NCBI GenBank assembly: GCA_021735655.1
Contig: JAIPGM010000009.1
Location: 1 to 64,000, forward strand
Direction: 5' to 3'
Source: Candidatus Omnitrophota bacterium
GTDB taxonomy: Bacteria > Omnitrophota > Gorgyraeia > Duberdicusellales > 4484-171
Length of the DNA: 64,000 nt
Shown here: one piece after another, positions 1,389 to 14,981 of the stretch
How positions within the stretch are numbered: position 1 is the first letter of the stretch
Layout of the letters: each line of letters opens with the position of its first letter
Program-made: the position numbers and the translations under genes
The notes under the pieces: generated by a model
Told to the model about the DNA's origin: nothing
Seen by the model: the letters and a program-made list of their open reading frames with translations, nothing else
Databases searched by the model: none

Positions 1389-2012
1389 CTATATGATTTT
1401 TCCAGCACTTACCACAACAAAACCACCTTTTCCAAAACCTCTCTGAGGCTTTTCGATTGAGTCAATCTTGCTTGGCAAGCGAAATATTGTCTGATAATAA
1501 GAAAAGCTACTAAACCCTGCAGTTTTAAGTAAAGCTGTTAATTCTTTTACCGTAAGCAAATTGGCCTCCTGGTAAAAAACACTTTTCTTAGTTCGATAAA
1601 ATTCACCTAAAAAGCTATTTCTATCTATTATGCCTATGATCAGCTTGCCACTATTCTCAAGAACTCTCCATGCTTCCTTAATTACTCCCAGCGGATTATC
1701 AACAAATGAAAGAGTAACAATAATCACAGCGTAGTCAAAGGCGTTATCCAAAAAAGGAAGGTCTTCGCCAAGACCCCAGCACACGTTTACTCCTCTTTGT
1801 CGGGCAATTTCAATCATATCATGAGAGGGATCGATCCCCATCTGAATTCCTAAAGCAGAAGCAAATCTCCCCGTACCAACACCGATCTCTAAACCTCGCC
1901 CTTCTTTAGGAATTACAATCTTAAAAGCTTCAATTTCCGATAAATAAGCAAGTTTATTCCTATCGTACCAAGCATCATATTTTTTAGGATACACTTCAAA
2001 TATGTTTTTCAT
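1389..2012 (-). CDS. Class I SAM-dependent methyltransferase
   Basis: It has the LEIGVGTGRF glycine-rich SAM-binding motif I and a Methyltransf_11-like layout. Confidence 0.75.
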   Translation of the reverse strand: MKNIFEVYPKKYDAWYDRNKLAYLSEIEAFKIVIPKEGRGLEIGVGTGRFASALGIQMGIDPSHDMIEIARQRGVNVCWGLGEDLPFLDNAFDYAVIIVTLSFVDNPLGVIKEAWRVLENSGKLIIGIIDRNSFLGEFYRTKKSVFYQEANLLTVKELTALLKTAGFSSFSYYQTIFRLPSKIDSIEKPQRGFGKGGFVVVSAGKII

Positions 2013-2380
2013 ACAGCGCTCTGCTCATCAGCTATACTAATCCCATTCTCAACAGCCATTATCAAATCAACAACCTTATTACTTATTAATTCCAATTTAG
2101 CTAACTCTGAATTAGCCGTATAGTTATCCCCAGAGTCACTTAACTGAATGACTCGCCTAACAATGACATGGAGCTTGGCGTGGGCTTTTTCAAGCTCTTG
2201 CATCTCAGATATCATTCCATACTTTTGTATCCCTTCGGTATATAGCCACTTCCCTAAACTGCATTCATGAGGGGAAACTGCTTCTTCCTCCTGAATACAC
2301 TCTCCTCCATCAAGAAAACACCTAAGCCTGATATTCCAAATTACATGATCCCTTATTTCTTGAATAAAATTAATTTTTCC
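2009..2380 (-). CDS. CZB (chemoreceptor zinc-binding) domain protein, stand-alone
   Basis: The H..W...L...C.LGKWL signature is present as DHVIWNIRLR...HECSLGKWLY. I moved the start to the internal Met (MGKINF) to avoid a 25-nt overlap with the upstream J-domain gene. Confidence 0.6.
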   Translation of the reverse strand, partial: GKINFIQEIRDHVIWNIRLRCFLDGGECIQEEEAVSPHECSLGKWLYTEGIQKYGMISEMQELEKAHAKLHVIVRRVIQLSDSGDNYTANSELAKLELISNKVVDLIMAVENGISIADEQSAV

Positions 2381-2409
2381 CATAATACCGACAAAAAACA
2401 TTAATATGA

Positions 2410-2733
2410 TTAGAAATCTAAATCTCCCCACCATCCATCATAAAATCTTTTCAAATGTTTGTAGAATTCTTTATCCATGGCATTCCTTTTTACATCTTTT
2501 TCTTTAAAAGAGTAGCGATAATTAGTACAATAAACCGAAAGGATATCCCTAGCATGATTAATCTTCTTAATCATCTCTTCGCAGTGTTTTTTATCCTCCT
2601 CCTGGCAGCGATCAGGATGAAATTCAAGACTTAAGCTTCGATAGGACTCCTTTATATCATCCAAAGTTGCCATTTCATCCAAGCCCAGTACTTTTCTTGC
2701 TTCATCAATTTGTTTAAAATCTGCCATTTGCAC
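2410..2733 (-). CDS. J-domain (DnaJ-like) protein with an HPDRC...C motif
   Basis: It has the HPD tripeptide (EFHPDRCQEEDKKHCEE) and a J-domain helix pattern. It is a paralog of the gene at 21997..22686. Confidence 0.7.
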   Translation of the reverse strand: MQMADFKQIDEARKVLGLDEMATLDDIKESYRSLSLEFHPDRCQEEDKKHCEEMIKKINHARDILSVYCTNYRYSFKEKDVKRNAMDKEFYKHLKRFYDGWWGDLDF

Positions 2734-2764
2734 TTTCCTTACTCTGAAAAATTTCAGGACTACA

Positions 2765-3082
2765 TCAAATGCAAGGTTTAATTAGAGTTTCAAGTTCTGC
2801 CTTCGACAATGCACCCACACCCTTATCAACCACTTTACCCGCTTTAAAAATTACCAACGTAGGAATACTCATAATGCCATATTCAGAAGCTGTTTTTGGC
2901 GCTTCGTCTACATTTAATTTACATACCTTTAATTTCCCTTGATAATCCTTAGCTATCTCTTCAACTACCGGAGCGACCATAAGACAAGGCCCACACCAAG
3001 GAGCCCAAAAATCTACCAAAACCGGTAAACCCGATTCTAATACCTCTCGCTTAAAATTACTATCATTTACTTTAGCTTCCAT
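2765..3082 (-). CDS. trxA: Thioredoxin
   Basis: It carries the WAPWCGPC active-site motif and is 105 aa long. Confidence 0.9.
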
Positions 3083-3109
3083 TCACCCTCCTTTCTATTC
3101 TACAAAATT

Positions 3110-3820
3110 CTAAACTTCTATTGTCTGTCCTACCTTTACACCGACAAAATTATTTCCATATTCAGCTTTAAATATTTCTATCGCCTCATAACCGGTGCAA
3201 TGAGTAGGCCCAACTTTCTCGACTCCAATTTCTTTGAGCTTCTCGACTATGAGTTTCACTTCTCTTTTATCCTTATCGATCAAGTGGAATTCGCCCAAAA
3301 CAAGATAAATATGATCAGAAATATTCGCCTTCACGGTTTCAATAATCTTGATTATCCCCGGATGTGCGCAACCAGTCAAAATAGTTAAACCTTTAGATGT
3401 CTTTAAGGTAAGTAACTGCTCAGCTATTGGTTGACCACCATAACTGCCGATTATTTCACCCGTACTATAGATATTTTCGTTCAATTTAGTAAACTGCTTA
3501 ATATCTGCTAGCTTACCGCCATAAGATTTAACTGTTGTCTTAAACTTTTTGCTGAAAGAACGACAGACATAGACCTTTAATCCTGAGCGCTCCTCCAGTA
3601 TATCCTCTAATCCACCGGTATGATCCCAATGATCATGAGAAATAACTACTTTTTCTATTTTCGATAGCTTTACTTCCATAAATTCCAGGTTGTTGAATAA
3701 CGACCATCCCTTTTCACCAGTATCAAAAAGAATTTTTCCATCTACAAGATAAGCCACGCCCCAGCCGGTTAAAAAGTGCTCACCTAAAGAAAAACTATCA
3801 AAAAGTATTTTAACCTGCAT
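3110..3820 (-). CDS. MBL-fold metallo-hydrolase
   Basis: It carries the HxHxDH motif as VISHDHWDHTGG. Confidence 0.8.
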   Translation of the reverse strand: MQVKILFDSFSLGEHFLTGWGVAYLVDGKILFDTGEKGWSLFNNLEFMEVKLSKIEKVVISHDHWDHTGGLEDILEERSGLKVYVCRSFSKKFKTTVKSYGGKLADIKQFTKLNENIYSTGEIIGSYGGQPIAEQLLTLKTSKGLTILTGCAHPGIIKIIETVKANISDHIYLVLGEFHLIDKDKREVKLIVEKLKEIGVEKVGPTHCTGYEAIEIFKAEYGNNFVGVKVGQTIEV

Positions 3821-4700
3821 TTTTCTTTGAATTATATAACAATACTATATCGCCTAACCTACAGCCAGTATGCTCAGCTACTACCTGACACTTAACCATG
3901 AATAAAAAGAAAATTGGCCTTTTTTCTTGCGACAAAGTTTCAAAGTTACCCTGGCCCTTGCTGATTATCATGTCGGCGCTACGGTAAATCCGCTTAAATT
4001 CTTTTGAGCATAAAGGCAATATTGTTCCCGGGGCATCAGTCCCATTAGAAATTATCCGGCTCACCTTATCTAAACCGCAAACTCTGGCATCATCCAACAG
4101 GGCATCGTTTATAATCGGCTTTTCCTTTACCGCATAATAAATAATTTTATCAGGATAAAGTCTTTTTATCTCTTCAATCAAAATCCGGTCAAAAACTGTT
4201 TCGCCGGCATTATCAGCTAAATAAAGAATATTTTTAGTTTTTTTAAGGCACTGTTTAAACTCTCGATAATGAAATATTGACTGCTTATCGATGTATTTCT
4301 TTTCTTTAGCTAATATTTTTTTTAATTCTTGGTCAATATTCAAATTGTTTTTTACTCCAAAATCTATAATATTGCCGGCAATGGCCAGTTCCACTGACAC
4401 CAAAAGCCGATTCTTAGAAGAATTTACCTTATTCTTTAATTGCTTATAGAGCTTTAAAGCTAGGCGGTTGCTTGTAGCCTTTATTTTTTTATAAGGGTCA
4501 TTTCCCGGACTAAGCTTTTTTAACAAGTGATAACCCACACGAGCTATCTCCGGAGGCGTAGAATTAAGAGAAACTTCAGAGATTGTCTTTGCTAAGTGAT
4601 TAATAATCTGCTTCTGATGTTTCGGACTCAACCCAGCAATCCTGGCTCCTTCCAGAGCCTGCCGAAAAAAACAAGGTATACAGTCTAGATAAGTTTTCAT
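3810..4700 (-). CDS. DUF89-family protein (damage-control phosphatase ARMT1-like)
   Basis: The N-terminal MKTYLDCIPCF and the overall pattern resemble DUF89. This assignment is from memory of the family, not a search. Confidence 0.5.
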   Translation of the reverse strand: MKTYLDCIPCFFRQALEGARIAGLSPKHQKQIINHLAKTISEVSLNSTPPEIARVGYHLLKKLSPGNDPYKKIKATSNRLALKLYKQLKNKVNSSKNRLLVSVELAIAGNIIDFGVKNNLNIDQELKKILAKEKKYIDKQSIFHYREFKQCLKKTKNILYLADNAGETVFDRILIEEIKRLYPDKIIYYAVKEKPIINDALLDDARVCGLDKVSRIISNGTDAPGTILPLCSKEFKRIYRSADMIISKGQGNFETLSQEKRPIFFLFMVKCQVVAEHTGCRLGDIVLLYNSKKNAG

Positions 4701-5473
4701 TAAACTTTACCTCGCCTGGCTAAGGTATCTTTATTGCTAATCGGTTTAATATCTTTTTTTGACGCTTCATAGACCGATACCGCAGGCAACCCTTCAAAAT
4801 ATTTTTTTATTCCGGTTAATTCTCCTTTGGGTAACGGCTTCACCCTGCACAGCCTAAGAGGCGTATTAATTTGAACTTCCTCAGGATTAATTTCTCTTAT
4901 AATCTTTGCAATCTCTTTTGCATATTTTTTATTTTCTTTGATAAACATAACTTGCAATGCTAATTTCCCTTGATATATATTTTTAAATTTTTTTATCGCG
5001 AAAACAATATTTTTAAAATAAATGCTTTTTAACGGACGATTAATTACCTCAAAAACTTCCTGCGAACAAGCATCAAGCTTAACTGCAACTAAATCAGCGA
5101 GTAATAGGTCTTTCTGGACATCTTCTCTGTGTAATAGAGAAGAGTTAGTTAAAACTGCTATTTTGTTTTTTCGTATTCTTTTAACCGCCCTTATCGCATC
5201 TCCCAAATTCTCGGCGATAGTCGGCTCACCTGCTCCAGAAAAAGTAATATAATCTATTTTTACCGGCGGCAATGAGTCTAGCTCTTCAATAATCTTACTG
5301 ACCGGAACAAAAACCTTTCTTTCATCGCTAAAAAGCAGGGTTTTGCCCAATTGGCAATATATACAATCAAAACTACAGATTTTATTGCCTTGAGAAATTA
5401 GGTCTATCCCTAAAGAACTGCCCAACCTCCATGAAGGAACCGGGCCGTAAATATATTTAAATTCAGGCTTCAT
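4700..5473 (-). CDS. Radical SAM protein (CX3CX2C)
   Basis: It has the CSFDCIYC cluster motif and a YGPVPSWRLGSSLGI N-terminus typical of a radical SAM subfamily. Its start overlaps the DUF89 gene by 1 nt. Confidence 0.8.
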   Translation of the reverse strand: MKPEFKYIYGPVPSWRLGSSLGIDLISQGNKICSFDCIYCQLGKTLLFSDERKVFVPVSKIIEELDSLPPVKIDYITFSGAGEPTIAENLGDAIRAVKRIRKNKIAVLTNSSLLHREDVQKDLLLADLVAVKLDACSQEVFEVINRPLKSIYFKNIVFAIKKFKNIYQGKLALQVMFIKENKKYAKEIAKIIREINPEEVQINTPLRLCRVKPLPKGELTGIKKYFEGLPAVSVYEASKKDIKPISNKDTLARRGKV

Positions 5474-5476
5474 TTG

Positions 5477-5836
5477 TCAACGCACAATGAATTTTGACTT
5501 TACGCGGTTAGCCGAAAAAAAATCCTTGGTAAATTTTAAGGCAACTTTATGGTCAAAGAACTTACAGGAAAAAATATTAATATAAGAAATACGCCAATGC
5601 TCACTGAAATGACCAGTTATCGAGCTGGTTTCAATAAATTGTAAAAGTGAATAACCGCTAGTCTGAGGTTTTTGCAAACCAAAATACGGAAGATGCAACT
5701 TACCATATTTCTCCATATCAATTAATTCACAAAGACGGTCGACATATGCACTGATTTTTTTCTTAGACTTCATAGTTTTTAAATCACAATCATATAAGTC
5801 CATAATCAGTTCGTACCCGAATGCCTTTTGATCCAT
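5477..5836 (-). CDS. Pyruvoyl-dependent S-adenosylmethionine decarboxylase-like protein (SpeH/AdoMetDC family)
   Basis: The N-terminus has ...MDLYDCD... and the C-terminus has SSITGHFSEHWRISYINIFSC, resembling the SpeH pattern ESHLTIHTWPE...DVFTC. Confidence 0.55.
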   Translation of the reverse strand: MDQKAFGYELIMDLYDCDLKTMKSKKKISAYVDRLCELIDMEKYGKLHLPYFGLQKPQTSGYSLLQFIETSSITGHFSEHWRISYINIFSCKFFDHKVALKFTKDFFSANRVKSKFIVR

Positions 5837-5865
5837 ACCCGCCTCCTTTAAAAATTAATTAATAT

Positions 5866-6261
5866 TTAAAAACGTAATAAATAACCGGCTATTGCTCGAT
5901 AAAGCGTACTTACTGCAAGTATTGAGCAGTGCAGATGGTCTTCGGGTAAACCTTTCAACCTTGTGATCACTTCTCCCGCAGAGACTGTCAACGCCTCGTT
6001 GATTGTTTTACCATAAGCCAGATTAGCGACCATTGCAGCACACGCCCTTGTTGCGCCGCAGCCATCTGTATAATATTTAATATCGGTAATCTTTCTATCT
6101 TCTATCACCAAATAAAACTCCATCGAATCCCCGCAAGGCCCTTTTAAGTATGACGAAGCTGTAGGATCGCTCATTCTGCCAAAAAACTTCGGATCATTTA
6201 AAAGACTTACAAACTCTTTAGGGTAGCCAGTAGTTTCTTCCTTGTTACTTGAATTTTTCAT
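5866..6261 (-). CDS. NifU/IscU N-terminal-domain-like Fe-S scaffold protein
   Basis: It has the GPCGDSMEFYL...DGCGATRACAAM cysteine pattern of IscU/NifU N-domains. Confidence 0.65.
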   Translation of the reverse strand: MKNSSNKEETTGYPKEFVSLLNDPKFFGRMSDPTASSYLKGPCGDSMEFYLVIEDRKITDIKYYTDGCGATRACAAMVANLAYGKTINEALTVSAGEVITRLKGLPEDHLHCSILAVSTLYRAIAGYLLRF

Positions 6262-6286
6262 ATAGATACCCTCCGAAATTATCTAT

Positions 6287-7276
6287 TTATGCCGACACGT
6301 ATTTATTTTTATCTTTAAAACTTGGCTCTCTTGGCCCGTCAACCGGCAGCTTAGACTCACTGATGAATGCCTTAAAACTTCCTAAACGAACAGATTGCCC
6401 GCTTGGCTTATTTGAAAAAAGGTATTGCTTCTTCGTGTCTAATTTTTTTATAAGTTCATCTTCAAAGGCATATGCCGAAACAAAATCCATTCCATTTTTC
6501 GTTAAAACAAAAACAGGTATTTGCCGAGAAAGTTGCATTATAGCCGCAGGGCCGATCATCTGTCTTATATCAAAAGAAGCGCAACTCCAGACTAAATCAG
6601 CGTAATCACGTATCATGTTAATTTTATCTTTAGCTATACCGGTCGTACATATTGCCAATGAAATTATTCTAATACCGCTTTCTTTTTCTAACGAACGTAA
6701 TGCTTTTAAATTCTTAGCTGAATGACCACATATAGTAACCGCAATAGTCTTATATCCTGCTTTTATCGCGCCTTCAACTCCCCGTACCTGATCAATAAGC
6801 GCGTTTTCAAATATCATCTGACAGCCAGCAGCCTTAAGTTTCTGAATAATCGCTTTAATCGGTGAGGTTAACAATAAACTATTCATTCGGGCGCCGATGC
6901 CTTGTACTATTTCCGGTTTATCGGTAACAACCGTCCCCGCCCCTTCGCAAACTACAACTGCCGAATCTATCGTACCTTTTTTTAACGCGAACATGAGCAT
7001 CTCTGAAGCGCCATATGGTATCGTAACATCATCATATGAAATTTTTCTCTCATCCGTAAAAAAACCGTAGTCTTTTATTTTTGACTCAATCACTTTTTTT
7101 ATAGAATTTTTAATGGCTTCCTTATTGTTGCCCCGAATACCACTAAAATCCTTATATAGGTGCTCGGCCAGTGGGCAAAAAGCAAGTGTTGGCTCGGTAA
7201 TATTAATGACCTTCCCAGAAGATACACTCACAAACGATGAAAAATATTTTAATATATGGATATCCCGTTTATCCAT
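6287..7276 (-). CDS. Conserved hypothetical protein, possibly DUF2099-like
   Basis: It is a long ORF with good coding periodicity. The family assignment is uncertain. Confidence 0.4.
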   Translation of the reverse strand: MDKRDIHILKYFSSFVSVSSGKVINITEPTLAFCPLAEHLYKDFSGIRGNNKEAIKNSIKKVIESKIKDYGFFTDERKISYDDVTIPYGASEMLMFALKKGTIDSAVVVCEGAGTVVTDKPEIVQGIGARMNSLLLTSPIKAIIQKLKAAGCQMIFENALIDQVRGVEGAIKAGYKTIAVTICGHSAKNLKALRSLEKESGIRIISLAICTTGIAKDKINMIRDYADLVWSCASFDIRQMIGPAAIMQLSRQIPVFVLTKNGMDFVSAYAFEDELIKKLDTKKQYLFSNKPSGQSVRLGSFKAFISESKLPVDGPREPSFKDKNKYVSA

Positions 7277-7288
7277 AAAATCCTTATT

Positions 7289-8140
7289 CTAAACTTGTAA
7301 TTTTTCCCAAATTTTGCGAATCTCACCCTTAACTACCGTATCCTTATATTCAATAATAGTCTTACCCTCAACCATAGCTTCTACCACTGTTTTATCAAAT
7401 CTGACTTTACCGGCTAAGGAAATTCCACTCTTTAGGCAATGTTCTTCTATTTTTTCTGACATATCCAAATTTAAATCATATTTATTAATTACTAACCGCG
7501 AAGGGACATTAAAATGTTTAGTTACTTCTATAACCCTTAACGCATCATGCAAACCGGATAAGGTGGGTTCAGTTACTACTACCGCGCAATCTATTCCAGA
7601 AAGCGAGGCGATAACCGGACATCCTATACCTGGGGCACCGTCAATGATAACCCAATCACAATTATTCTTCTCGGCCAGTTCTTTTGCCTGTTTTCTCACC
7701 AATGAGACAAGCTTGCCTGAATTCTCTTCAGCGATTCCAAGTTTAGCGTGCACCATCGGGCCAAAGCGAGTTTCGGAAATAAACCACTCTCCGGCAATAT
7801 TCTCTTCCATCTTAATAGCGCCAACCGGACAAACATGATAACAAAAAGTACATCCTTCGCAGGAAACCCCATCTACAGAAAAATCTTCACTTATAGCAGA
7901 GAAACGACAGACTTCAACACATTTGCCGCATTTAACACATTTTTCCTTATCAATAACGGCTGTTTTGCCACTTCTGAATTCATGTTTTTCTTTGACCGAC
8001 GGCTTCAGCAAAAGATGCAGATCCGCTGCGTCCACATCGCAGTCAGCCATAACTTTATTTTTCGCCAGTGCCGCGAAGGCTCCGGTAATTACAGTCTTGC
8101 CTGTCCCGCCTTTTCCACTTATTATGACTATTTGCTTCAT
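7289..8140 (-). CDS. MinD/ParA-family P-loop ATPase with an inserted 4Fe-4S ferredoxin domain (COG1149-like)
   Basis: It has the SGKGGTGKT deviant Walker A and two CxxCxxCxxxCP motifs (CVKCGKCVEVC, CEGCTFCYHVCP). I moved the start to MKQIVIIS, giving a 10-nt gap after the upstream stop. Confidence 0.8.
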   Translation of the reverse strand: MKQIVIISGKGGTGKTVITGAFAALAKNKVMADCDVDAADLHLLLKPSVKEKHEFRSGKTAVIDKEKCVKCGKCVEVCRFSAISEDFSVDGVSCEGCTFCYHVCPVGAIKMEENIAGEWFISETRFGPMVHAKLGIAEENSGKLVSLVRKQAKELAEKNNCDWVIIDGAPGIGCPVIASLSGIDCAVVVTEPTLSGLHDALRVIEVTKHFNVPSRLVINKYDLNLDMSEKIEEHCLKSGISLAGKVRFDKTVVEAMVEGKTIIEYKDTVVKGEIRKIWEKLQV

Positions 8141-8150
8141 GCAGTCTCTC

Positions 8151-9497
8151 TTACATTTTATCTGACGCGTTTTGAGCCGCCAAGACAACCGGATACATAG
8201 TTGGAGCAGATGTTAAATAGGGGTGAGTTGCCATTTGCAATGTTTCTAACTCGGTTATCGAGACTCTCTGTTGAATAGCCATACCAATAATGTTGATTAT
8301 TTCCCCCGCTGATATGCCTCCAGCTACCTGCCCACCCATAAAAATACCTGATTGTTTTGAAAAAATAAGTTTTACCCTTATTTTGTTTGCTCCGGGAAGG
8401 CTTCCGGGATGTTTATCAATACTCTCGGTATTTCCCGAAACAATCTCAAATCCCTCTTTCTTGGCACTCATTTCGGTAAGACCGGCTGAACCCAAAACCA
8501 AACCATCCACGTAAGTTGAGTAAATCGCTATTGTCCCCTTATTTTCACGCACAACCTTTAATTGGTATAGATTTGCTCCGGCAATCCTCGCCTCAGCAGT
8601 AGCAGTAGAAGCAAGCATAACTGGTGTGTCTTTTCTCGTGTAAAAATCTCGTTTTCCGGCACAATCACCCACAGCAAAGATATCGGAATCAGCAGTACGC
8701 ATATACTCATCCACCCATATACCCTGGCCTCTTCCTAAATCCAAACCTGCTTCGGTCGCTAAGGCTGTATTCGGACTAGCGCCTATCCCTAAAATAACGC
8801 TATCCACTTTAAGCTCTTTTCCGTTTTCAAACCGCACACCCTCTACTCTTTCCTTCCCTAAAAATTCAACCACTTTAGTGTCAGTTAAAATGGTGACTCC
8901 TCTTGACTTTAACTTCTCTTCAACCAATAAAGAAAATTCCTTATCAAAAGAATTTGCCAGTAAACACGGAAGAACCTCTGCTAAATATACATTAACACCG
9001 TTTATTTTTGAAATCTCATCAGCAAATTCAACGCCGATAAATCCTCCCCCCAGAACCAATACATCCTTAGCTTTTTTTAATTCCGCTACTGTTTTTTTTA
9101 AATAATCCATTTCTTTATATATCGGGTAAACTCCCTCTTTATCAATTCCAACTATTGAGGGCTTAATCGGCACCGAACCAGGGGCAAGGACCAATTTCTC
9201 ATATTCATATTCTTCGCCACTTTTAGCGGTTACTTTTTTTAGGCTACGGCTTATCTTTACCGCCTCATCAATAACGATTTCTATATTATTCTTCTTAAGA
9301 GCGTCAAGCCCCAACTTATTGTCATCGGGATTTTTAAGGCTCCAAAACATATAAGGAATACCACAAGGAATACAACCGTTAATCACATTTTTCATAACTA
9401 AGACATTTTTATCCGGATAATATCGCTTTGCCGTGATCGCACTCACCAACCCAGCTGGTCCACCGCCAACAATAAGAACATCCACTTTTTTAGCCAT
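8151..9497 (-). CDS. FAD-dependent pyridine nucleotide-disulfide oxidoreductase (NADH oxidase / CoA-disulfide reductase family)
   Basis: It has the VLIVGGGPAGL FAD motif, a single redox Cys in CIPCGIPY, and a second GGGFIGVE NAD motif. Confidence 0.85.
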   Translation of the reverse strand: MAKKVDVLIVGGGPAGLVSAITAKRYYPDKNVLVMKNVINGCIPCGIPYMFWSLKNPDDNKLGLDALKKNNIEIVIDEAVKISRSLKKVTAKSGEEYEYEKLVLAPGSVPIKPSIVGIDKEGVYPIYKEMDYLKKTVAELKKAKDVLVLGGGFIGVEFADEISKINGVNVYLAEVLPCLLANSFDKEFSLLVEEKLKSRGVTILTDTKVVEFLGKERVEGVRFENGKELKVDSVILGIGASPNTALATEAGLDLGRGQGIWVDEYMRTADSDIFAVGDCAGKRDFYTRKDTPVMLASTATAEARIAGANLYQLKVVRENKGTIAIYSTYVDGLVLGSAGLTEMSAKKEGFEIVSGNTESIDKHPGSLPGANKIRVKLIFSKQSGIFMGGQVAGGISAGEIINIIGMAIQQRVSITELETLQMATHPYLTSAPTMYPVVLAAQNASDKM

Positions 9498-9513
9498 AAA
9501 GTATACTTCTCCT

Positions 9514-9897
9514 TTATAAAGATTCTAGCATTACACAGAGTCCATAAATTACATCAATGTTATTGTCACGACAAAATTTTATCGCAGTTTCATTTTCAGC
9601 TCCCGGTTGAAGCCAAACTCTTCTTATAGATTTTTCCCGACATTCCTTTACTATCGCCTCGGTAACCGAAGGAGGGGTAACCAGATTAGCAACATCAATA
9701 TTAAAAGGAATATCGCTTATACTTTTATAACCTTTTACTCCGTCGACATCATTTAAACGGGGGTTAACCGGATATGCCTCATACCCCCTTTTTATCAAAG
9801 TCCTCAAAATTTTATACGCGTATTTAGTTTCATTTCTGAACGAGCCCACGACCGCAAATTTCTTCTGCCTTAAAAAATCCTTAACTAAGTTTTCCAT
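9514..9897 (-). CDS. CoA-binding domain protein (YccU/YneT-like)
   Basis: It has the KKFAVVGSFRNETKYAYKI pattern. The start was taken at MENLVKDF. Confidence 0.7.
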   Translation of the reverse strand: MENLVKDFLRQKKFAVVGSFRNETKYAYKILRTLIKRGYEAYPVNPRLNDVDGVKGYKSISDIPFNIDVANLVTPPSVTEAIVKECREKSIRRVWLQPGAENETAIKFCRDNNIDVIYGLCVMLESL

Positions 9898-10738
9898 CTT
9901 TAATCTTATTAAAAAGCTGCTCAAAATCTTTTCTGTATTCGGGAAAGGCTTTTACAATCGGCTCACCTTTTGAATAGGTAATTGCTATCTCCTTTTTAAA
10001 AGGTATCCGCATAAGAATAGGAACATTCTCCTTTTGGCAATACTCATCTGTTTTATTGTCCCCCAAATCCGAGCGGTTAATCACGACCCCAAAAGACACT
10101 TTCAGCTTTCGTAAAACTTCTACAGCCAGCATTAAATCGTTCAACCCAAACGGCGTTGGCTCAGTAACCAACAGGCAAAAATCACTTCTCTTTATAGTCT
10201 CAACCACCGGGCATGATGTACCAGGAGGAGCATCAATAATAACCGTACCTGTTGGATCAATATACTTCTTGATTTGCCTTATGACCGGCGGCACCATTGC
10301 CTCTCCGATATTTAGACGTCCATGTATAAACTGCATAGAACCAACCTCACCAATCTCGATTTCACCAATCTCTTTATTAACTTCCTTTATCGCCGCTTGG
10401 GGACAAAAGTAAGTACAGCTTCCGCAGCCATGGCAAAGGTTCGAAAAGACTAAAATGTTTCCCTTCCTCTCCTTGGATTCGGCTATCACCGCGATAGCAT
10501 TATAAGCGCATACCTGACGACACTTGCCGCAATAATTACACTTTGCTTGGTCAATTTCCGGAACCGGGATAAAAACTTTTTGGATACTGCTTATGGTCGG
10601 CTTCAAAAAAATATGTGCGTTGGGCTCTTCAGCGTCACAATCTAAAAACTGCACCCTCTCCTTTATAGAAAGTGCCAAATTGACCGCTATTGTAGTTTTT
10701 CCTGTCCCGCCTTTTCCGCTGGCAATTGATATAATCAT
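9881..10738 (-). CDS. MinD/ParA-family P-loop ATPase with an inserted 4Fe-4S ferredoxin domain (paralog of 7289..8140)
   Basis: It has SGKGGTGKT plus CNYCGKCRQVC and CHGCGSCTYFCP motifs. The start ATG was verified at 10738. Confidence 0.8.
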   Translation of the reverse strand: MIISIASGKGGTGKTTIAVNLALSIKERVQFLDCDAEEPNAHIFLKPTISSIQKVFIPVPEIDQAKCNYCGKCRQVCAYNAIAVIAESKERKGNILVFSNLCHGCGSCTYFCPQAAIKEVNKEIGEIEIGEVGSMQFIHGRLNIGEAMVPPVIRQIKKYIDPTGTVIIDAPPGTSCPVVETIKRSDFCLLVTEPTPFGLNDLMLAVEVLRKLKVSFGVVINRSDLGDNKTDEYCQKENVPILMRIPFKKEIAITYSKGEPIVKAFPEYRKDFEQLFNKIKDGKLS

Positions 10739-10742
10739 AAAT

Positions 10743-11354
10743 TTACATAAGTGAGTGGCAAGCTGTCACTATTTCCTGAAACTTACTGGAATACGTTTCT
10801 ATGCTAAAATCTTTTCTCTGTAAATATTTACCTATATCGTTTAAGTTTACCGAGCCTGCCTTATGAGTTCTCCCTTCGCTCTCATGAATCTTACCGATTA
10901 GTTTTAACCCCTCTTCGTTAAAATCACTCAAGATAAATTTACCTTCAAAACTAGTTACTCTGATAAGTTCATCCATTACTTTATAAGGATTTTCGAAATG
11001 ATGAATAGCGTTGATTACAAATACTGTATCAAAACTTGCATCTTTAAAGCTAAATTGTTCGGCATTTTCTATTTGAAAATTTACCAATTTTGCAAAACCA
11101 AAATATTTTATATTCCGTCTAGCATAATCTTGTTCTTGATACGAAACGTCAACACTAGTAAAATTATACCCTGCCTTAGCTAACTCAACAGTAAAATAAC
11201 CTTTTCCAGTCCCCACTTCTAGAATATCTCCATCGAAAGGGCATGATTTCTCTAAAATAAATTTACGCTCTTTTTCAATATCGTAACCAAAGCTTTTATA
11301 AAAATTTACCCTTTCTAAATATCGAGTATAATAATCTGATGTTTTATTTTCCAA
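10743..11354 (-). CDS. Class I SAM-dependent methyltransferase
   Basis: It has the ILEVGTGKGYF motif I. The start is TTG, verified at 11354, with SD AAGGGAGT. Confidence 0.75.
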   Translation of the reverse strand: MENKTSDYYTRYLERVNFYKSFGYDIEKERKFILEKSCPFDGDILEVGTGKGYFTVELAKAGYNFTSVDVSYQEQDYARRNIKYFGFAKLVNFQIENAEQFSFKDASFDTVFVINAIHHFENPYKVMDELIRVTSFEGKFILSDFNEEGLKLIGKIHESEGRTHKAGSVNLNDIGKYLQRKDFSIETYSSKFQEIVTACHSLM

Positions 11355-11357
11355 AAA

Positions 11358-11576
11358 CTACTCCCTTAACATTCGAGTCGCACATTTAGGACAATTTAAT
11401 GAATTACACGGAACGCTTGCCTGATGAGATAATTTCGCCCCACAGCTTGGACAAATACAATTTCCACTTGGGCCAGCACCAGGACTATTGCCACCATTGC
11501 GCCCCCTACCGCGCCCCATTCCTCTACCTGTCCCTGAACCTTGACCGAAAGGACCTGTCCCATCTCCTCTTGGCAT
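11358..11576 (-). CDS. Small Gly/Arg-rich protein with an MPRGDGTGP N-terminus and a C-terminal C4 zinc ribbon (DUF5320-like)
   Basis: It shares the MP(R/G)xDGTGP..G.G..TG N-terminus with ORF 12693..13043. It has CICPSCG...CPKC motifs. Upstream is a strong SD, AAGGAGGT. Confidence 0.55.
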   Translation of the reverse strand: MPRGDGTGPFGQGSGTGRGMGRGRGRNGGNSPGAGPSGNCICPSCGAKLSHQASVPCNSLNCPKCATRMLRE

Positions 11577-11657
11577 TTTATACCTCCTTAATTTTCGAAA
11601 TTTACTAAATTGATAAATTAACTCCTAAAATTCTTAAGGAAGGATCTTAATCTAACT

Positions 11658-11825
11658 TTATAACGAAATCGCTTCAACCGGGCATTGGCTTAAACAAGCT
11701 CCGCAATCTACACATTCTTGACTAATAACTGCTTTACCCTCTTCAATCTTAATCGCCTGTACTGGACACACATCAACACAAGCGCTACAACCAGTACATT
11801 TATTATTATCTACTTTAGCCGCCAT
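11658..11825 (-). CDS. 2x[4Fe-4S] ferredoxin
   Basis: It has two motifs: CTGCSACVDVCP and CVDCGACLSQCP. The start was moved to MAAKVD, preceded by a strong SD, AAGGAGGGGG. Confidence 0.8.
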   Translation of the reverse strand: MAAKVDNNKCTGCSACVDVCPVQAIKIEEGKAVISQECVDCGACLSQCPVEAISL

Positions 11826-11838
11826 GCCCCCTCCTTTA

Positions 11839-12204
11839 TCATTTATTACCAAAATGTGAATCTACACTTGGACCTTGGGTTAGTTTAAATTCCCCCCTTT
11901 TATACTTCGCTATCACTTCTTTAATTGTTCCCGATACACCAGCAATCACATCAAGGCCTGCTGCCTGTAAGGTCTGAAAAGCATTTGGTCCAACATTGCC
12001 GGTTAAAATTACTTTTACCTGCTTTTCGGCTGCAAGCTGACCCGATTGAATTCCAGCCCCACCCATACTATCTATATTAGGATTCTTAACTGACTCAAAA
12101 TCCTCTGATTCGGTATCAGCAATAATAAAATACTGACAACGACCAAAGCGAGGATCAACCGTCGAATCTAGGCTATCCCCTTGTGACGTAATACAAATCT
12201 TCAT
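11839..12204 (-). CDS. Dinitrogenase FeMo-cofactor biosynthesis-domain protein (NifX/NifB-C-terminal-like)
   Basis: It has MKICITSQGDSLDSTVDPRFGRCQYFII, the canonical start of this domain family. Upstream is SD AGGAGGT. Confidence 0.75.
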   Translation of the reverse strand: MKICITSQGDSLDSTVDPRFGRCQYFIIADTESEDFESVKNPNIDSMGGAGIQSGQLAAEKQVKVILTGNVGPNAFQTLQAAGLDVIAGVSGTIKEVIAKYKRGEFKLTQGPSVDSHFGNK

Positions 12205-12215
12205 AAATTTACCTC

Positions 12216-12617
12216 CTATTCATGCTCACAGTTATCTTCATCAGGATGATCACAAGCTGTCTTTTCTACGCCATATCCTTTTCCGGCCCCAGGCTGGCAA
12301 AGGCTTTCCCCTCCTTTAAGTGTTCCGGCCGTAGCTTGCTTAACTATTTCATCTACTTTTCCGCTAATCCCCATTATTGTTTTTATTCCACTTTCATCAA
12401 ATAACATTTGAGCCCTTTGCCCCATGCCACCAGCGACAATGGCGTTCACTCCTTTCTCCTTTAAAAACTGAGGTAAAAACCCCGGGTGATGCCCTGGGTT
12501 ATCAACCACCTGTTTCCTTATTAGTTTATCACCCTCAAGCTCTACAATAGTAAAGGAAGGACACCGGCCAAAATGAGCTGATACTAAATCACCATCTGTT
12601 GAAATTGCTACTTTCAA
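12216..12617 (-). CDS. Dinitrogenase FeMo-cofactor biosynthesis-domain protein (NifX/NifB-like), with an Asp/Cys/His-rich tail
   Basis: It has MKVAISTDGDLVSAHFGRCPSFTIV. The start is TTG, verified, with SD AGGGGGT. Confidence 0.75.
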   Translation of the reverse strand: MKVAISTDGDLVSAHFGRCPSFTIVELEGDKLIRKQVVDNPGHHPGFLPQFLKEKGVNAIVAGGMGQRAQMLFDESGIKTIMGISGKVDEIVKQATAGTLKGGESLCQPGAGKGYGVEKTACDHPDEDNCEHE

Positions 12618-12692
12618 AATTACCCCCTTATTAAAAATTTACCAAACAAGTAAGAATAAAGATATTTCCTTACCCCTACCTATCTCTTTACA

Positions 12693-13043
12693 CTATTTAT
12701 TACCTTCAAGTCCAGCATTAGATTCTAATTCCTTAATGCGCTGATTCATAGCTTCAATCTCATCCTGCATCAGCTTCGCTTCGGCTTTTAACTCAACTGC
12801 CTCCTGCTGTGGTGTAAGCCCGGGAACATACGGTAATCCAAAATAAGGATTTCCGTAAGCGTAACCGCCGGCTCTTCGCCATCCAAAGCCTCTTCCAAGA
12901 CCCCTTCCTAATCCACGACCTCTGCCAAAAAATCCACCTCTGACCGGACGCTGCGCACTTCCTGCCGGCAATGCACAATAGCCTCTTGCCCCACCGGTCA
13001 TCGAGCCTAACCCTTGAGGACCTGTTCCATCGAAACCTGGCAT
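12693..13043 (-). CDS. DUF5320-like protein: MPGFDGTGP N-terminus, Gly/Arg-rich middle, C-terminal coiled coil
   Basis: It has the shared N-terminal motif and SD GGAGGT. A Fur box lies immediately upstream. Confidence 0.6.
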   Translation of the reverse strand: MPGFDGTGPQGLGSMTGGARGYCALPAGSAQRPVRGGFFGRGRGLGRGLGRGFGWRRAGGYAYGNPYFGLPYVPGLTPQQEAVELKAEAKLMQDEIEAMNQRIKELESNAGLEGNK

Positions 13044-13063
13044 TTAAATCACCTCCATTTTTT

Positions 13064-13082
13064 GTTAATGATAATCATTTTC
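13064..13082 (-). promoter_or_regulatory. Fur box: 17 of 19 matches to GATAATGATAATCATTATC
   Basis: The plus strand reads GTTAATGATAATCATTTTC. It lies 20-40 nt upstream of the start of 12693..13043 and directly downstream of the fur stop. Confidence 0.6.
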
Positions 13083-13101
13083 ATTAATATTTTAAAAAAA
13101 A

Positions 13102-13584
13102 TTACTCCTCCTTTTTACCTTTACATTTATCACATAACCCATAAAATTGGATAACGTGATCGTCGATTTTAAAGTTATATTTTTTAGACAATCCTTTTTC
13201 TGTCTTCTGTAATAGTTCAATTTCATCTTTAATAAAATCAGTATAGTCAATAACCCTTCCACAATTCCTACATACTAAATGATGATGATGATGCCGTTGG
13301 CCTTTGGGGCCCTGGTTTAACTCATAGCGTGCTCTTCTATCTCCAAAATCTGATCTAATTACCAAGCCCATTTGAACAAGCAATTCAAGCGTACGATACA
13401 CAGTAGTTAAGCCAACATTGGGATAATCCTTATGAACCTTTATATATACATCCTCAGCACTAACATGTACAGAGGTTGCACCTAAAACGTCCAAAATTGC
13501 CCTTCTCGGAACAGTAAACCTATAACCACATCCTTTGAATTTGCCTTGCCACCAGCTAGGCCCTCTTTTGCATCTACCTTGCAC
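13102..13584 (-). CDS. fur: Fur-family metalloregulator (Fur/Zur/PerR)
   Basis: It has a winged-helix N-terminus (FTVPRRAILDVL), HHHHH...CRNCGRV and a C-terminal CDKC. The start is GTG with SD AAGGAGGA. Confidence 0.85.
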   Translation of the reverse strand: MQGRCKRGPSWWQGKFKGCGYRFTVPRRAILDVLGATSVHVSAEDVYIKVHKDYPNVGLTTVYRTLELLVQMGLVIRSDFGDRRARYELNQGPKGQRHHHHHLVCRNCGRVIDYTDFIKDEIELLQKTEKGLSKKYNFKIDDHVIQFYGLCDKCKGKKEE

Positions 13585-13598
13585 TACTCCTCCTTATT

Positions 13599-13646
13599 GA
13601 TAATGGTTTCCATTTCTAATATAACATTCATCTCAAAGCTTGTCAA
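13599..13646 (-). promoter_or_regulatory. Sigma-70-type promoter of fur (TTGACA-17-TATATT), followed by an AATGGAAACCATT palindrome (Fur-box-like auto-operator)
   Basis: The -35 is at 13641-13646 and the -10 at 13618-13623, with a 17-nt spacer. The palindrome at 13602-13614 lies between the -10 and the RBS. Confidence 0.55.
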
Positions 13647-13889
13647 GGTGGTTTTTCAAAAAAATACTGTCTCAGGAAATCTAAATATACAAGAATAGTA
13701 AACTTTAGGGAAAGGTTTAGTAAAATAGCGGCTTGAAACCGCCCAAAGCGGCGAAGCCCAAGAACAAGGACAACTTTCGAGTGCCTGCCGGCAGCCAGGG
13801 ATCGGATATTCTTAAGCACCTAAGTTTGGAAAAAGATTCGGCTCTTGCCCCGAGATCAACTTCTGATTATCCGAAACATAAAATGCAAA

Positions 13890-14030
13890 CTATTGCATTT
13901 GTTTTACAGATGCAATAAGGGCTAAAACACCTTTGCCAATTAGCCATGCAATAGCGATAACTATAACCGCAATGATAAATGGTTTTAGAGATCCGGTGCT
14001 TGGTTGCAATGAATCTTTCTTGTCTGCCAT
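13890..14030 (-). CDS. Unlisted small ORF, 46 aa, hydrophobic: MADKKDSLQPSTGSLKPFIIAVIVIAIAWLIGKGVLALIASVKQMQ
   Basis: It has a strong SD (GGGGGT) about 6 nt before the ATG and a single predicted TM helix. It lies 21 nt downstream of the preceding gene. Confidence 0.4.
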   Translation of the reverse strand: MADKKDSLQPSTGSLKPFIIAVIVIAIAWLIGKGVLALIASVKQMQ

Positions 14031-14051
14031 GTCTTTACCCCCTTCACTTTA

Positions 14052-14981
14052 TTACAGCTTATCGACTATCTGATACAAAACCCCTCCGGCAATATCAGGC
14101 TTTGGAAAAACATATTTGCGCGCGGAAATTGTTATCTCAGTCTTGTTATCCGACTCCCTCCTGAGTTGAATCGCCACCATCGCACCCTGTATATTCGCTT
14201 TAATGGCTCCGTTTGCCGCATCCTCTTTGGTTAATTTTCCAATCCGTTTTACTACCTCAAGGCTTACTTCATACACATGTTGAAAGCTGGCATCCGTGGT
14301 TTGCTGCACACTATCCTTACCTAAAAATGTTGCCGCGATACCAACCGGCAAGGCCGCCACTCCAGACAACATAACAAGGCCGTATATCTTAGCGGCTTTT
14401 ATCCCCGCAGCCTTTACCGGTTCCACAAGGATCAAGACAGCCAGTTGTTGCGCACTAGTAATACCTTTATAGCTTTTATGAATATTAACGTCCTGCACTC
14501 GCACAGCCGGCTCCGTGCCTACTGAATAATCTTTATAAACTATTTTTCCAATGCCTAGAGTCAAGAGATCGATTCGCATCGGCATAGGCTTAGACGGCTT
14601 TGGCGCCTGCACCACCTTTAACGAATCTACATTGAGCTCTCCTTCTTTGTTCTTCATGAGCCCCATCTCATCTAACTCAACCTCCACAAGTACCAAGTGT
14701 AATTTTTGTTTAAAAAGGGCAGCGCGGTCATAGATAACGTTTATTTTCGAGCAAGAGACAAGTATGCCCTTAGGAAACCCACTTGGATTGTATATTTTGA
14801 GCCCGGATATACGTATAGATGATTTTAAAATACTAAATGAAAAACCATCCATATGGACCGGCACTCCGGTAATGCGAGAGGCGGCAGTTGTCACCACAGA
14901 TTTAATTATCGGATTTTTAAAAACTATGATAGATACTAAAAGAACTACTATTACTCCTAGCACTATAAGAAATTTCTTCAT
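14052..14981 (-). CDS. Membrane-anchored hypothetical protein (N-terminal TM, AsmA/DUF748-like?)
   Basis: It has N-terminal hydrophobic helix KKFLIVLGVIVVLLVSIIV and a preferred ATG start at 14981 with SD GGGGGG. Confidence 0.55.
   Translation of the reverse strand: MKKFLIVLGVIVVLLVSIIVFKNPIIKSVVTTAASRITGVPVHMDGFSFSILKSSIRISGLKIYNPSGFPKGILVSCSKINVIYDRAALFKQKLHLVLVEVELDEMGLMKNKEGELNVDSLKVVQAPKPSKPMPMRIDLLTLGIGKIVYKDYSVGTEPAVRVQDVNIHKSYKGITSAQQLAVLILVEPVKAAGIKAAKIYGLVMLSGVAALPVGIAATFLGKDSVQQTTDASFQHVYEVSLEVVKRIGKLTKEDAANGAIKANIQGAMVAIQLRRESDNKTEITISARKYVFPKPDIAGGVLYQIVDKL

Follow-up and report, generated by a model that had tools for sequence, protein, structure and literature searches.

The closest described relative of the gene cluster treated here is the ORP complex of Desulfovibrio vulgaris. 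Its components include Orp3 and Orp4, which are MinD-like ATPases with two [4Fe-4S] motifs, and the orange protein Orp8 (PMC6345978, PMC8359166, PMC3897727, PMC4641369), together with Orp9 (MrpORP), in which an Mrp/NBP35 protein is fused to a Di-Nase/NifX domain (PMC6345978). The ORP proteins form a complex, and MrpORP hands Fe-S clusters to Orp3, Orp4 and Orp8 in vitro (PMC6345978). Expression of the two divergent orp operons depends on sigma54, IHF and OrpR, a redox sensor with a [4Fe-4S] cluster; their function is unclear, possibly lying in cell division (PMC8359166). We analysed a stretch of 64,000 nt from the metagenome-assembled genome of an uncultured Candidatus Omnitrophota bacterium (GCA_021735655.1, contig JAIPGM010000009.1, positions 1 to 64,000; referred to as the window), which carries on its minus strand a cluster of ~21 genes covering ~12 kb, from ~13646 down to ~1389. 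The cluster is very probably a Fur-family-controlled ORP-like operon. A first-pass annotation of the region had regarded the combination of NifX-like proteins and MinD-ferredoxin ATPases as one of unknown function, but the same gene set constitutes the Desulfovibrio ORP complex (PMC6345978, PMC8359166).

The regulatory head of the operon and its ORP-like set consist of the following features. Presence counts, here and below, have the 28 full-flank loci from other genomes as denominator.

13618..13646, minus strand: sigma-70-type promoter of fur (TTGACA, 17 nt, TG-n-TATATT; 11/12 positions)
13594..13616, minus strand: operator O1, GAAATGGAAACCATTATCAATAA, between the fur -10 element and the ribosome-binding site
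13102..13584, minus strand: Fur-family repressor, paralog A, 160 aa, GTG start (PF01475, 7.7e-33)
13065..13087: operator O2, TTAATGAAAATGATTATCATTAA, in the 58-nt gap from fur to the first structural gene
12693..13043, minus strand: DUF5320 protein, 116 aa (PF17253, 1e-21)
12216..12617, minus strand: NifX-domain protein 1, 133 aa (PF02579, Nitro_FeMo-Co, 1.4e-23)
11839..12204, minus strand: NifX-domain protein 2, 121 aa, ORP/Orp8 homolog (Nitro_FeMo-Co, 2e-25)
11658..11825, minus strand: small 2x[4Fe-4S] ferredoxin (Fer4_21, 5e-16; 12/28 loci)
11358..11576, minus strand: short DUF5320 protein, 72 aa (PF17253, 3e-6; 21/28 loci)
9881..10738, minus strand: MinD/ParA ATPase copy 1 with an inserted 2x[4Fe-4S] ferredoxin domain, Orp3/Orp4 type (CbiA, ParA, Fer4; 25/28 loci)
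7289..8140, minus strand: MinD/ParA-ferredoxin ATPase copy 2 (24/28 loci)

The resemblance to the ORP complex is found in the NifX pair and in the ATPases. NifX protein 1 resembles the C-terminal Di-Nase domain of MrpORP, aligning with positions 265-364 of the NCBIfam MrpORP model at 98.8 bits (cut-off 450 bits), and matches TM1816 and PH0822 in the PDB. It has an acidic Cys/His tail and carries the HFGxC, HxPGxxP and CDH motifs that are linked to Fe-S binding in MrpORP (PMC6345978). The best PDB match of NifX protein 2 is 2WFB, the ORP of D. gigas (7.7e-20; 39% identity over the full length), and the protein also matches MTH1175 (7.8e-17). The ATPase paralogs share 33% identity and combine CbiA/ParA with Fer4 domains, with SGKGGTGKT as Walker A motif in copy 1; their kinship with Orp3/Orp4 (DVU2103/DVU2104) is judged by domain architecture. 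The 64-kb window contains no Mrp and no two-domain MrpORP, only the stand-alone Di-Nase-like protein, and a separate Mrp/NBP35 with a CPxC motif is encoded in sister loci. On these matches the system is best described as ORP-like and not as a straightforward family member: its regulator differs, MrpORP is split, and many genes have joined the set.

Sister loci were collected by scanning GTDB species representatives with DUF2099, a protein encoded in the 3' half of the operon, as anchor; the open reading frames (ORFs) of the 60 loci obtained were searched with 17 window proteins. About 50 Omnitrophota-type genomes, in which DUF2099 is 45-81% identical to that of the window, keep the order Fur, DUF5320, NifX, NifX, (ferredoxin), (short DUF5320), methyltransferase, ATPase, (CoA-binding protein, CoADR), ATPase, DUF2099, IscU, (Mrp/NBP35), (radical SAM, DUF89) and metallo-beta-lactamase-fold (MBL) protein. 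The fur gene lies directly upstream on the same strand in 29 of the 30 loci that have the NifX pair and enough upstream sequence. A second search, which avoided the bias towards DUF2099 by using the Fur protein as query, returned 1978 relatives at E <=1e-15, the top 120 being >=70% identical. In WOR-3 (L065/L066) the order is Fur, DUF5320, NifX, NifX, a FeThRed_B-like protein and two MinD-ferredoxin ATPases. A Nitrospirota locus (L189) starts with a CGGC-domain protein and a cytochrome, continues with Fur, DUF5320, NifX and NifX, and after further genes reaches a ParA/Mrp-like P-loop ATPase at the contig end. Two more loci (L187, L188) start in the same way and continue with combinations of Mrp, MinD-ferredoxin ATPases, IscU, methyltransferase, MBL, radical SAM and TrmO-like proteins. 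Both boxes are present in all of these, and one Nitrospirae contig (L064) has the CGGC gene and fur only. Because these Fur-anchored contexts share them, paralog A, DUF5320, the two NifX proteins and the P-loop ATPases can be considered the core, to which individual lineages have added DUF2099 and much of the 3' half. At least three phyla, Omnitrophota, WOR-3 and Nitrospirota, share the arrangement. A lack of co-conservation in related genomes had been named in the first-pass annotation as the outcome that would speak against a functional unit; the neighbourhood comparison found the genes clearly co-conserved.

Individual sister operons contain further genes. In L187 the Fur-A/DUF5320/NifX cluster includes a gene (12657-13832) that joins a cation-diffusion-facilitator (CDF) transporter to a NifX (Nitro_FeMo-Co) domain, an observation that we count for iron. 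A CDF protein with an MTH1175 domain, only loosely related, is predicted to be Fur-regulated in Acidithiobacillus ferrooxidans (PMC1874648). In some operons a ferritin-like gene replaces the ferredoxin and the short DUF5320, with feoAB, lacking a box, just upstream (L002, 7191-7676 and 988-2945). In L001 (13613-14038) the cluster includes an Rrf2 (IscR-like) regulator and a peptide deformylase.

Within the 12 kb scanned, no site matches better than the fur promoter (13646..13618), which has TG upstream of its -10 element. A CTTGACA-17-TATAAT/TATATT arrangement is found upstream of fur in ~30 sister loci, and in nearly every locus the promoter is followed 1-4 nt on by TAATGGAAACCATTTTCATTAA. 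The 58-nt gap between fur and the DUF5320 gene contains GAAAATGATTATCATTAAC in the window and TAATGGAAATGRTTTTCAWTAA in the sister loci. A 23-nt operator matrix was built from 52 sites of the sister loci (consensus TTAATGGAAATGATTTTCATTAA, with the 7-1-7 palindrome core TGGAAAY-S-RTTTTCA) and used at a threshold of 14 bits. O1 scores 29.0 bits and O2 30.2 bits, and each agrees with the family-specific 21-mer without a mismatch, where 0.03 such sites are expected by chance. Compared with the E. coli 19-mer, the Fur box at 13064-13082 matches at 16/19 positions on the minus and 17/19 on the plus strand (chance expectation 0.05 matches per window). The two copies, ~530 bp apart, flank the regulator gene: O1 is predicted to overlap the +1 position of fur's consensus promoter, and O2 stands just before the first structural gene. 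Both positions are fixed across sister loci, and that of O2 also in WOR-3 and Nitrospirota.

The first-pass annotation had reported a fur gene with its own promoter and operator, a near-consensus Fur box behind it and the wiring of the downstream genes to a Fur-family repressor, and these results bear it out on all three points. In a box scan over 994 kb of loci and the 64-kb window, the matrix found, at 14 bits or more, no site besides the two per locus, and none at the feoAB genes of sister loci, so that the regulator looks local and not global. With just two positions per locus found by the matrix, paralog A appears to serve this operon alone and to regulate itself. O2 might block a second promoter, serve as a roadblock or act as a looping partner on the fur transcript. 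In many sister loci the gap sequence is preceded by a hairpin over the fur stop codon and TATATTTTTTT. This hairpin has the form AGCGGT-AAGAAATA-ACCGCT, then ATATTTTTTT, upstream of O2 (e.g. L004 ~6370-6415, L035, L029, L011); it could be either terminator-like or the source of a -10 element (TATATT), and the window keeps just its T-run. A sigma54 promoter was considered and rejected, with no minus-strand consensus near 13000-13700 and no enhancer-binding protein gene in the cluster.

The repressor differs from ordinary Fur proteins in an N-terminal extension, MQGRCKRGPSWWQGKFKGCGYR in the window (13519-13584), with the consensus MPRGNCQGQGWWHGKFRGCGYR and a conserved Cys, which sets paralog A apart. 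The 116-aa DUF5320 protein itself starts with MPGFDGTGP, followed by a Gly/Arg/aromatic-rich segment (G, R, F, Y and W; isoelectric point (pI) 11.5) and a C-terminal coiled coil; its short relative combines an MPRGDGTGP motif with an RG-rich segment and a four-Cys zinc ribbon. A hidden Markov model of the DUF5320 N-terminal motif, made from 80 N-termini of 24 residues each, was searched against 7750 ORFs. It matched the extensions of three Fur orthologs at E = 2e-8, 3e-5 and 1e-3 (L073 11-484, with the N-terminus MPRGDGTGPIWWHGRFRGCGYR; L056 4650-5123; L009 3307-3777), and among these ORFs it found nothing else below E = 1 except DUF5320 proteins. The copy in the window's own Fur is degenerate (E = 5). 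By this match the Fur extension is homologous to the MPxxDGTGP signature of DUF5320. Such sharing suggests, speculatively, a common partner or ligand, through which the repressor could sense the state of the machinery it controls.

The remaining genes of the operon, and a hairpin within it, are listed here.

12644..12685, minus strand: 19-bp RNA hairpin just 3' of the DUF5320 stop codon
10743..11354, minus strand: S-adenosylmethionine (SAM)-dependent methyltransferase (Methyltransf_11, 1.5e-20; 23/28 loci)
9514..9897, minus strand: CoA-binding protein, variable insert (CoA_binding_2, 3e-34; 12/28 loci)
8151..9497, minus strand: CoADR/Nox-family flavoprotein, variable insert, CGIPY active-site motif (Pyr_redox_2, 6e-59; 13/28 loci)
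6287..7276, minus strand: DUF2099 / methanogenesis marker 8 (1e-78; predicted FrhB-like fold)
5866..6261, minus strand: IscU-type scaffold (NifU_N, 5e-23; 20/28 loci)
5477..5836, minus strand: AdoMet_dc (SpeH-like) protein (PF02675, 5.9e-15)
4700..5473, minus strand: radical SAM protein, CxxxCxxC (PF04055, 1.3e-14; 20/28 loci)
3810..4700, minus strand: DUF89 / ARMT1-like protein (PF01937, 1.7e-69; 16/28 loci)
3110..3820, minus strand: MBL-fold protein (Lactamase_B, 9e-8; 21/28 loci)
2765-3082, minus strand: thioredoxin, WCGPC, probable 3' extension of the unit (Pfam Thioredoxin assigned to the L001 homolog)
2410-2733, minus strand: J-domain protein, HPD, probable 3' extension (Pfam DnaJ assigned to the L001 homolog)
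within 1389..3082, minus strand: 141-aa ORF between the J-domain protein and the second methyltransferase, probable 3' extension
1389-2012, minus strand: second methyltransferase, probable 3' extension (Methyltransf_11, 2.8e-16)

All intergenic gaps from DUF5320 to MBL are <=81 nt, and most are <30 nt or overlaps. The packing is that expected of a single operon and on this ground we regard the region as one ~12-kb minus-strand unit. It was extended past the MBL gene through the thioredoxin, the J-domain protein and the second methyltransferase because of tight spacing and synteny; same-strand homologs were found in 19 sister loci for the J-domain protein and in 22 for the second methyltransferase. 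The genes listed in the first-pass annotation are all present on the minus strand according to Pfam and NCBIfam domain matches. Its inventory omitted the first methyltransferase (10743-11354), DUF2099 (6287-7276) and the MBL-fold gene (3110-3820), and its boundary at 5866 cut off the SpeH-like, radical SAM and DUF89 genes that it named itself; the unit reaches ~1389.

The flavoprotein scores 221 bits with the NCBIfam CoA-disulfide reductase model, under its cut-off of 458 bits. DUF2099 passes the TIGR03275 cut-off (240.2 vs 232.7 bits); its predicted FrhB-like fold came from a fold search, the PDB sequence search having returned noise only, and a literature search gave no useful paper on DUF2099 / methanogenesis marker 8 or on DUF5320. 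The IscU-type scaffold holds the canonical ligands C43, D45, C68, H111 and C112 and scores under the NCBIfam IscU and NifU equivalog cut-offs. The radical SAM protein reaches no NCBIfam family at cut-off, its best, weak matches being the W-cofactor maturase and MoaA. Where present in sister loci, the first methyltransferase is always encoded between the small proteins and the first ATPase, and the AdoMet_dc gene usually lies farther downstream than in the window. The hairpin at 12644-12685 (-20.5 kcal/mol, z = -5.1 relative to shuffles) is followed by a U-rich stretch and was also listed as terminator-like. It may be an intra-operon attenuator, or a stabiliser separating DUF5320 from the downstream genes.

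In view of the above, we propose that the operon encodes a machinery that is induced by iron limitation under control of paralog A and that builds, carries or hands over Fe-S or related metal-sulfide clusters, a reading to which we give somewhat better than even chances. A dimer of paralog A would bind both 7-1-7 copies, O1 and O2. With its corepressor bound, most likely Fe2+, it would shut off fur and the downstream genes, and scarcity of the corepressor would lead to expression of the whole unit. The products may be divided into three sets. The ORP-like set would comprise the orange-protein homolog, the stand-alone MrpORP NifX domain, the two Orp3/Orp4-type ATPases, the two DUF5320 proteins and the ferredoxin. 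An ISC-like set would include the IscU scaffold, the thioredoxin and the J-domain protein; the genome studied here would add the CoA-disulfide/persulfide-reductase-type flavoprotein with its CoA-binding partner. The third would consist of the putative FrhB-like redox protein (DUF2099) and several SAM-dependent enzymes. The J-domain protein, thioredoxin and ferredoxin could act as helpers and the NifX-type and P-loop proteins as carriers, while the CoADR-type enzyme of this genome could release sulfide from persulfides. What the sequences themselves show is which genes are present, how tightly they are packed, that they are co-conserved with the repressor and that both operators are conserved; that this repressor binds the boxes, what its effector is, in which direction it regulates and what the products do biochemically we infer here. 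The metallocluster assembly or trafficking system proposed in the first-pass annotation is consistent with the gene content and likewise stays at the level of a proposal.

The choice of effector can be considered together with the other Fur-family regulators. Omnitrophota have three Fur paralogs and three distinct 7-1-7 boxes. Paralog B, a Zur-like protein of 138 aa, adjoins znuA in Omnitrophota loci, has the Zur-type Cys and goes with the box TAGAAAnnATTTCTA (also given as ATAGAAAnnATTTCTAT). Paralog C is PerR-like, adjoins ferritin/rubrerythrin-like and PTPS genes and goes with the box TAGTAATTATTACTA. These further paralogs (B, C) were located in sister loci at the following positions.

L035, 7346-7762 and 9673-10680
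L054, 10228-10644 and 10910-11539
L002, 14561-14998
L032, 14788-15300

Iron is slightly favoured as the effector of paralog A, by its ligand residues and by elimination; another or additional signal is possible but clearly less probable. Conserved in an alignment of 30 orthologs are two CxxC pairs (Cys4), HHHHH, the His in HxSAED and the Glu in YEL. Where Zur proteins typically have a Cys in the regulatory site, there is a Fur-type Glu, with YEL[AN] in paralog A versus Y[SA]LC in the znuA-linked paralog B. The best family and PDB scores of paralog A go to Fur proteins, which we counted for iron, as we did the presence of a ferritin-like gene inside some sister operons or of feoAB adjoining them. 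Iron also appears the likeliest effector because the zinc and peroxide roles seem to be taken by the separate Zur-like and PerR-like paralogs, which have different boxes in the same loci. The predicted FUR box before fur and feoAB in Geobacter, Desulfuromonas and Desulfovibrio, tTGAAAATCATTTTCAg (PMC545781), is equal to the operon box.

A number of observations weigh against iron or against cluster assembly, and those on the regulatory side lend some credit to a sensor with the same wiring and a signal other than iron: zinc (Zur-like), peroxide or redox state (PerR-like), or the state of the machinery sensed through the DUF5320-homologous peptide. We consider such a sensor a real, if minority, possibility. 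The operon box equals the actinobacterial Zur box, a 7-1-7 sequence that was footprinted in Streptomyces coelicolor as TGAAAATGATTTTCA and resembles boxes of Mycobacterium and Corynebacterium (PMC2823685). A metagenome scan for TAATGGAAAYSRTTTTCA recovered the operon ~20 times, and it also returned high-GC contigs with the box before ZnuA, its ABC partner or CobW/COG0523, and two low-GC contigs (L098, L084) with the box before a 132-aa Fur-family gene, followed in L098 by ZnuA. Boxes that equal the Omnitrophota operator or nearly so (e.g. CTAATGGAAACGATTTTCATTAG), just upstream of ZnuA/ABC/CobW or Fur-family genes, were found at these positions.

L104, 431-453
L143, 2378-2400
L140, 737-759
L068, 2564-2586
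L121, 3061-3083
L135, 1935-1957
L098, 753-775 (Fur-family gene, then ZnuA)

The ZnuA/ABC/CobW-linked boxes are, judged by sequence and context, Zur boxes of the actinobacterial type. Because the same sequence precedes znuA and cobW in other bacteria, the identity of the box cannot name the metal, and the O2 box, initially taken as proof of iron, was withdrawn as such. Of the iron or peroxide regulation suggested in the first-pass annotation, Fur-family control thus stands and a diagnosis of iron from the box does not. The finding also calls for caution in regulon prediction, since one 7-1-7 box serves actinobacterial Zur, deltaproteobacterial Fur and paralog A. A Zur identity of the cluster regulator itself was rejected, as paralog B next to znuA has the Zur-type Cys and its own box.

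Further, no box of >=14 bits was found upstream of feoAB (L002/L027) or feoB (L022) in the ~20 kb per genome examined, which would be unusual for an iron Fur, and a ferritin-like gene in a Fur-repressed operon fits iron storage poorly. Paralog A also scores under the NCBIfam cut-offs for Fur equivalogs, with 131 bits for the Bacillus-type Fur model (cut-off 220 bits) and 94.6 bits for the next (cut-off 146). Most orthologs have Asp (VIDY) at the position equivalent to D104 of Bacillus subtilis PerR, a position that tunes peroxide sensitivity and is occupied by Glu in Fur proteins. The operator, on the other hand, has the G2/C14 of Fur-type 7-1-7 sites and not the PerR-type TTATAAT. Sensing of redox or machinery state would find a parallel in the Desulfovibrio orp genes, which respond to redox potential (PMC8359166), and an anchor in those ortholog N-termini that read MPRGDGTGP and are matched by the DUF5320 model. 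On the biochemical side, no cysteine desulfurase (IscS/NifS) was found in the cluster or among the scanned ORFs of the window, and an HscA/HscB pair is also lacking there, with no Hsp70 and only the small J-domain protein. The two methyltransferases, the radical SAM protein, DUF89, MBL and the AdoMet_dc-like protein have no place in a simple model of Fe-S assembly. For the ORP complex of Desulfovibrio the published link is to cell morphology, and a part in cluster trafficking is not proven (PMC8359166).

Fe-S storage has to be weighed as well. In IssA, an IPR003731 (NifX) domain is joined to a cationic, Gly/aromatic-rich disordered tail (PMC5524996). A split version of such thioferrate-type storage could be imagined, in which the NifX proteins would nucleate polyanionic Fe-S, DUF5320 would provide the cationic tail in trans, and the ATPases would load and unload the store. 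DUF5320 does have a cationic segment of the right kind and is always encoded beside two tail-less NifX proteins, and a CoADR/NSR-type enzyme accompanies the cluster in this genome. NSR and IssA both belong to the sulfur response of Pyrococcus. MTH1175, matched by NifX protein 2, was placed in the IssA clade by PMC5524996. The published criteria for IssA are a pI >=9, <5 Cys and >=20% Gly in the last 40 residues (supplement of PMC5524996), but NifX protein 1 has a pI of 5.5 and 17.5% Gly, and NifX protein 2 a pI of 5.3 and 15% Gly. IssA membership of the two was rejected on these values, and the similarity between DUF5320 and the IssA tail is compositional only. Moreover, repression by holo-Fur would turn the store off when iron is plentiful. 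Because the NifX proteins fall short on pI and Gly and Fur repression suits storage poorly, we regard split storage as unlikely. It is more doubtful still, though worth stating, that the peptide shared by Fur and DUF5320 is a docking or cluster-binding motif through which Fur senses how far the ORP-like machinery is loaded, in competition with DUF5320 for a metal-sulfide species or for the NifX or ATPase partners, with the DUF5320 segment as an IssA tail in trans. If true, this would amount to a widespread self-sensing module for Fe-S storage or trafficking in anaerobes of several phyla.

A role in cell division or polar positioning, with the MinD-like ATPases as positioning factors and the metal centres merely as cofactors, would agree with the morphological defects of D. 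vulgaris after OrpR inactivation and with the annotation of orp genes as cell division genes (PMC8359166, PMC4641369), and also with the polar location of MrpORP and the MinD-like C-terminal amphipathic helices of Orp3/Orp4 (PMC6345978). Both ATPases of the window match archaeal MinD models, weakly (59-67 bits) and below cut-off. Nevertheless, the cluster has no minC, minE, fts or other division genes, the role in Desulfovibrio is itself called unclear (PMC8359166), and a metal-sensing repressor, IscU, Mrp/NBP35, ferredoxin, thioredoxin and a J-domain protein together point to cofactor handling, which leaves division or positioning as an improbable function.

It is equally improbable that two or more units merely share orientation, namely a Fur-controlled ORP-like module (fur to the second ATPase) and an unrelated DUF2099/IscU-to-MBL module: WOR-3 and Nitrospirota do have the first module without DUF2099, distant DUF2099 genes (one from Methanobacteriaceae) occur without any of the neighbours, and downstream content and order vary between loci, but the reading is weakened because the junctions are tight (gaps of 3-29 nt or overlaps across the supposed boundary) and 3' genes (IscU, MBL, radical SAM, methyltransferase, TrmO-like) recur in Fur-anchored clusters lacking DUF2099, and besides this most Omnitrophota loci retain ATPase, DUF2099 and IscU in this order and the cluster contains no internal operator and no promoter scoring >10/12.

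Over the window as a whole, every ORF of >=150 aa lies on the minus strand, barring those antisense to larger minus-strand ORFs, and GC skew is negative in all 2-kb bins. No tRNA genes were found in the 64 kb, and an Rfam scan of 3000-14200 gave no RNA family. An ORF of 3236 aa (54019-63729, minus strand) has only Laminin_G_3 and DUF2341 matches, near its N-terminus; Omnitrophota typically carry giant surface-type proteins. A 731-aa fusion (26912-29107, minus strand) joins a radical SAM / lysine-2,3-aminomutase-like part to a D-Ala-D-Ala-ligase C-terminal (ATP-grasp) domain, and the region upstream of a ZIP-family zinc transporter gene (41072-41839) is free of all three Fur-paralog boxes.

The ORP complex and its relatives are widespread in anaerobes, and more than a decade of work in Desulfovibrio has not led to an agreed function. 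The wiring to Fur and the presence of IscU, a J-domain protein and thioredoxin, with Mrp/NBP35 in sister genomes, would tie an ORP-like system to metal homeostasis and Fe-S handling and not to division. They also offer first functional contexts for DUF5320, DUF2099 and a new Fur subfamily with an N-terminal peptide. Simple experiments become possible on the pair of defined operators, the single small repressor and its few partner proteins.

This wiring and composition appear to be undescribed in the searchable literature, and each known system covers only part of them. The sufABCDSE operon of E. coli is a Fur-repressed operon for Fe-S cluster assembly that is made when iron is scarce. The operon described here would likewise be an Fe-S assembly or trafficking operon under a Fur-family repressor with expression at iron scarcity. 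It differs in having no SufBCD or SufS homologs, using instead an IscU-type scaffold and NifX-, Mrp- and MinD-type carriers, and in encoding its own, apparently dedicated repressor. With NifB, NifX and NafY it shares the Nitro_FeMo-Co (PF02579) domain and a radical SAM gene nearby. There is no nifHDKEN in the window, however, and the NifX proteins group with ORP, MTH1175 and TM1816; a NifB-type cofactor pathway was rejected, as the radical SAM protein has no match to NifB models and the window no nif genes. Like IssA of P. furiosus, the system associates a NifX/IPR003731 domain with a cationic, Gly/Arg/aromatic-rich disordered segment in anaerobic, sulfide-rich lifestyles. Here this segment belongs to a protein of its own, DUF5320, the NifX proteins are acidic, and whereas IssA is induced at abundant iron and sulfide, Fur control would usually work in the opposite direction.

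As to the operators, the Zur box TGAAAATGATTTTCA and the deltaproteobacterial FUR box tTGAAAATCATTTTCA are essentially the same palindrome as that found here and likewise cover the -10 element or follow it closely. In deltaproteobacteria the regulator gene is commonly autoregulated. What distinguishes this locus from known 7-1-7 operators is that the boxes are paired ~530 bp apart, occur nowhere else in the available sequence and belong to a regulator with an extra N-terminal peptide.

The most extensive likeness is to orp3-4-5/orp7-8-9 of D. vulgaris Hildenborough (DVU2103-DVU2109). Both systems have an orange-protein homolog and two MinD ATPases with inserted 2x[4Fe-4S] domains, and both contain an Fe-S-binding domain of NifX type that resembles the C-terminal half of MrpORP, joined in the sister loci of our operon by an Mrp/NBP35 P-loop carrier. 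Both occur only in anaerobes, and neither has a settled function. Whereas Desulfovibrio has two divergent operons under sigma54, IHF and OrpR, a single co-directional operon with a sigma-70-type promoter and a Fur-family repressor is found here. MrpORP is split, its P-loop half being absent from the window, and the set is enlarged by the DUF5320 proteins, methyltransferase, DUF2099, IscU, radical SAM, DUF89, MBL, thioredoxin and J-domain protein.

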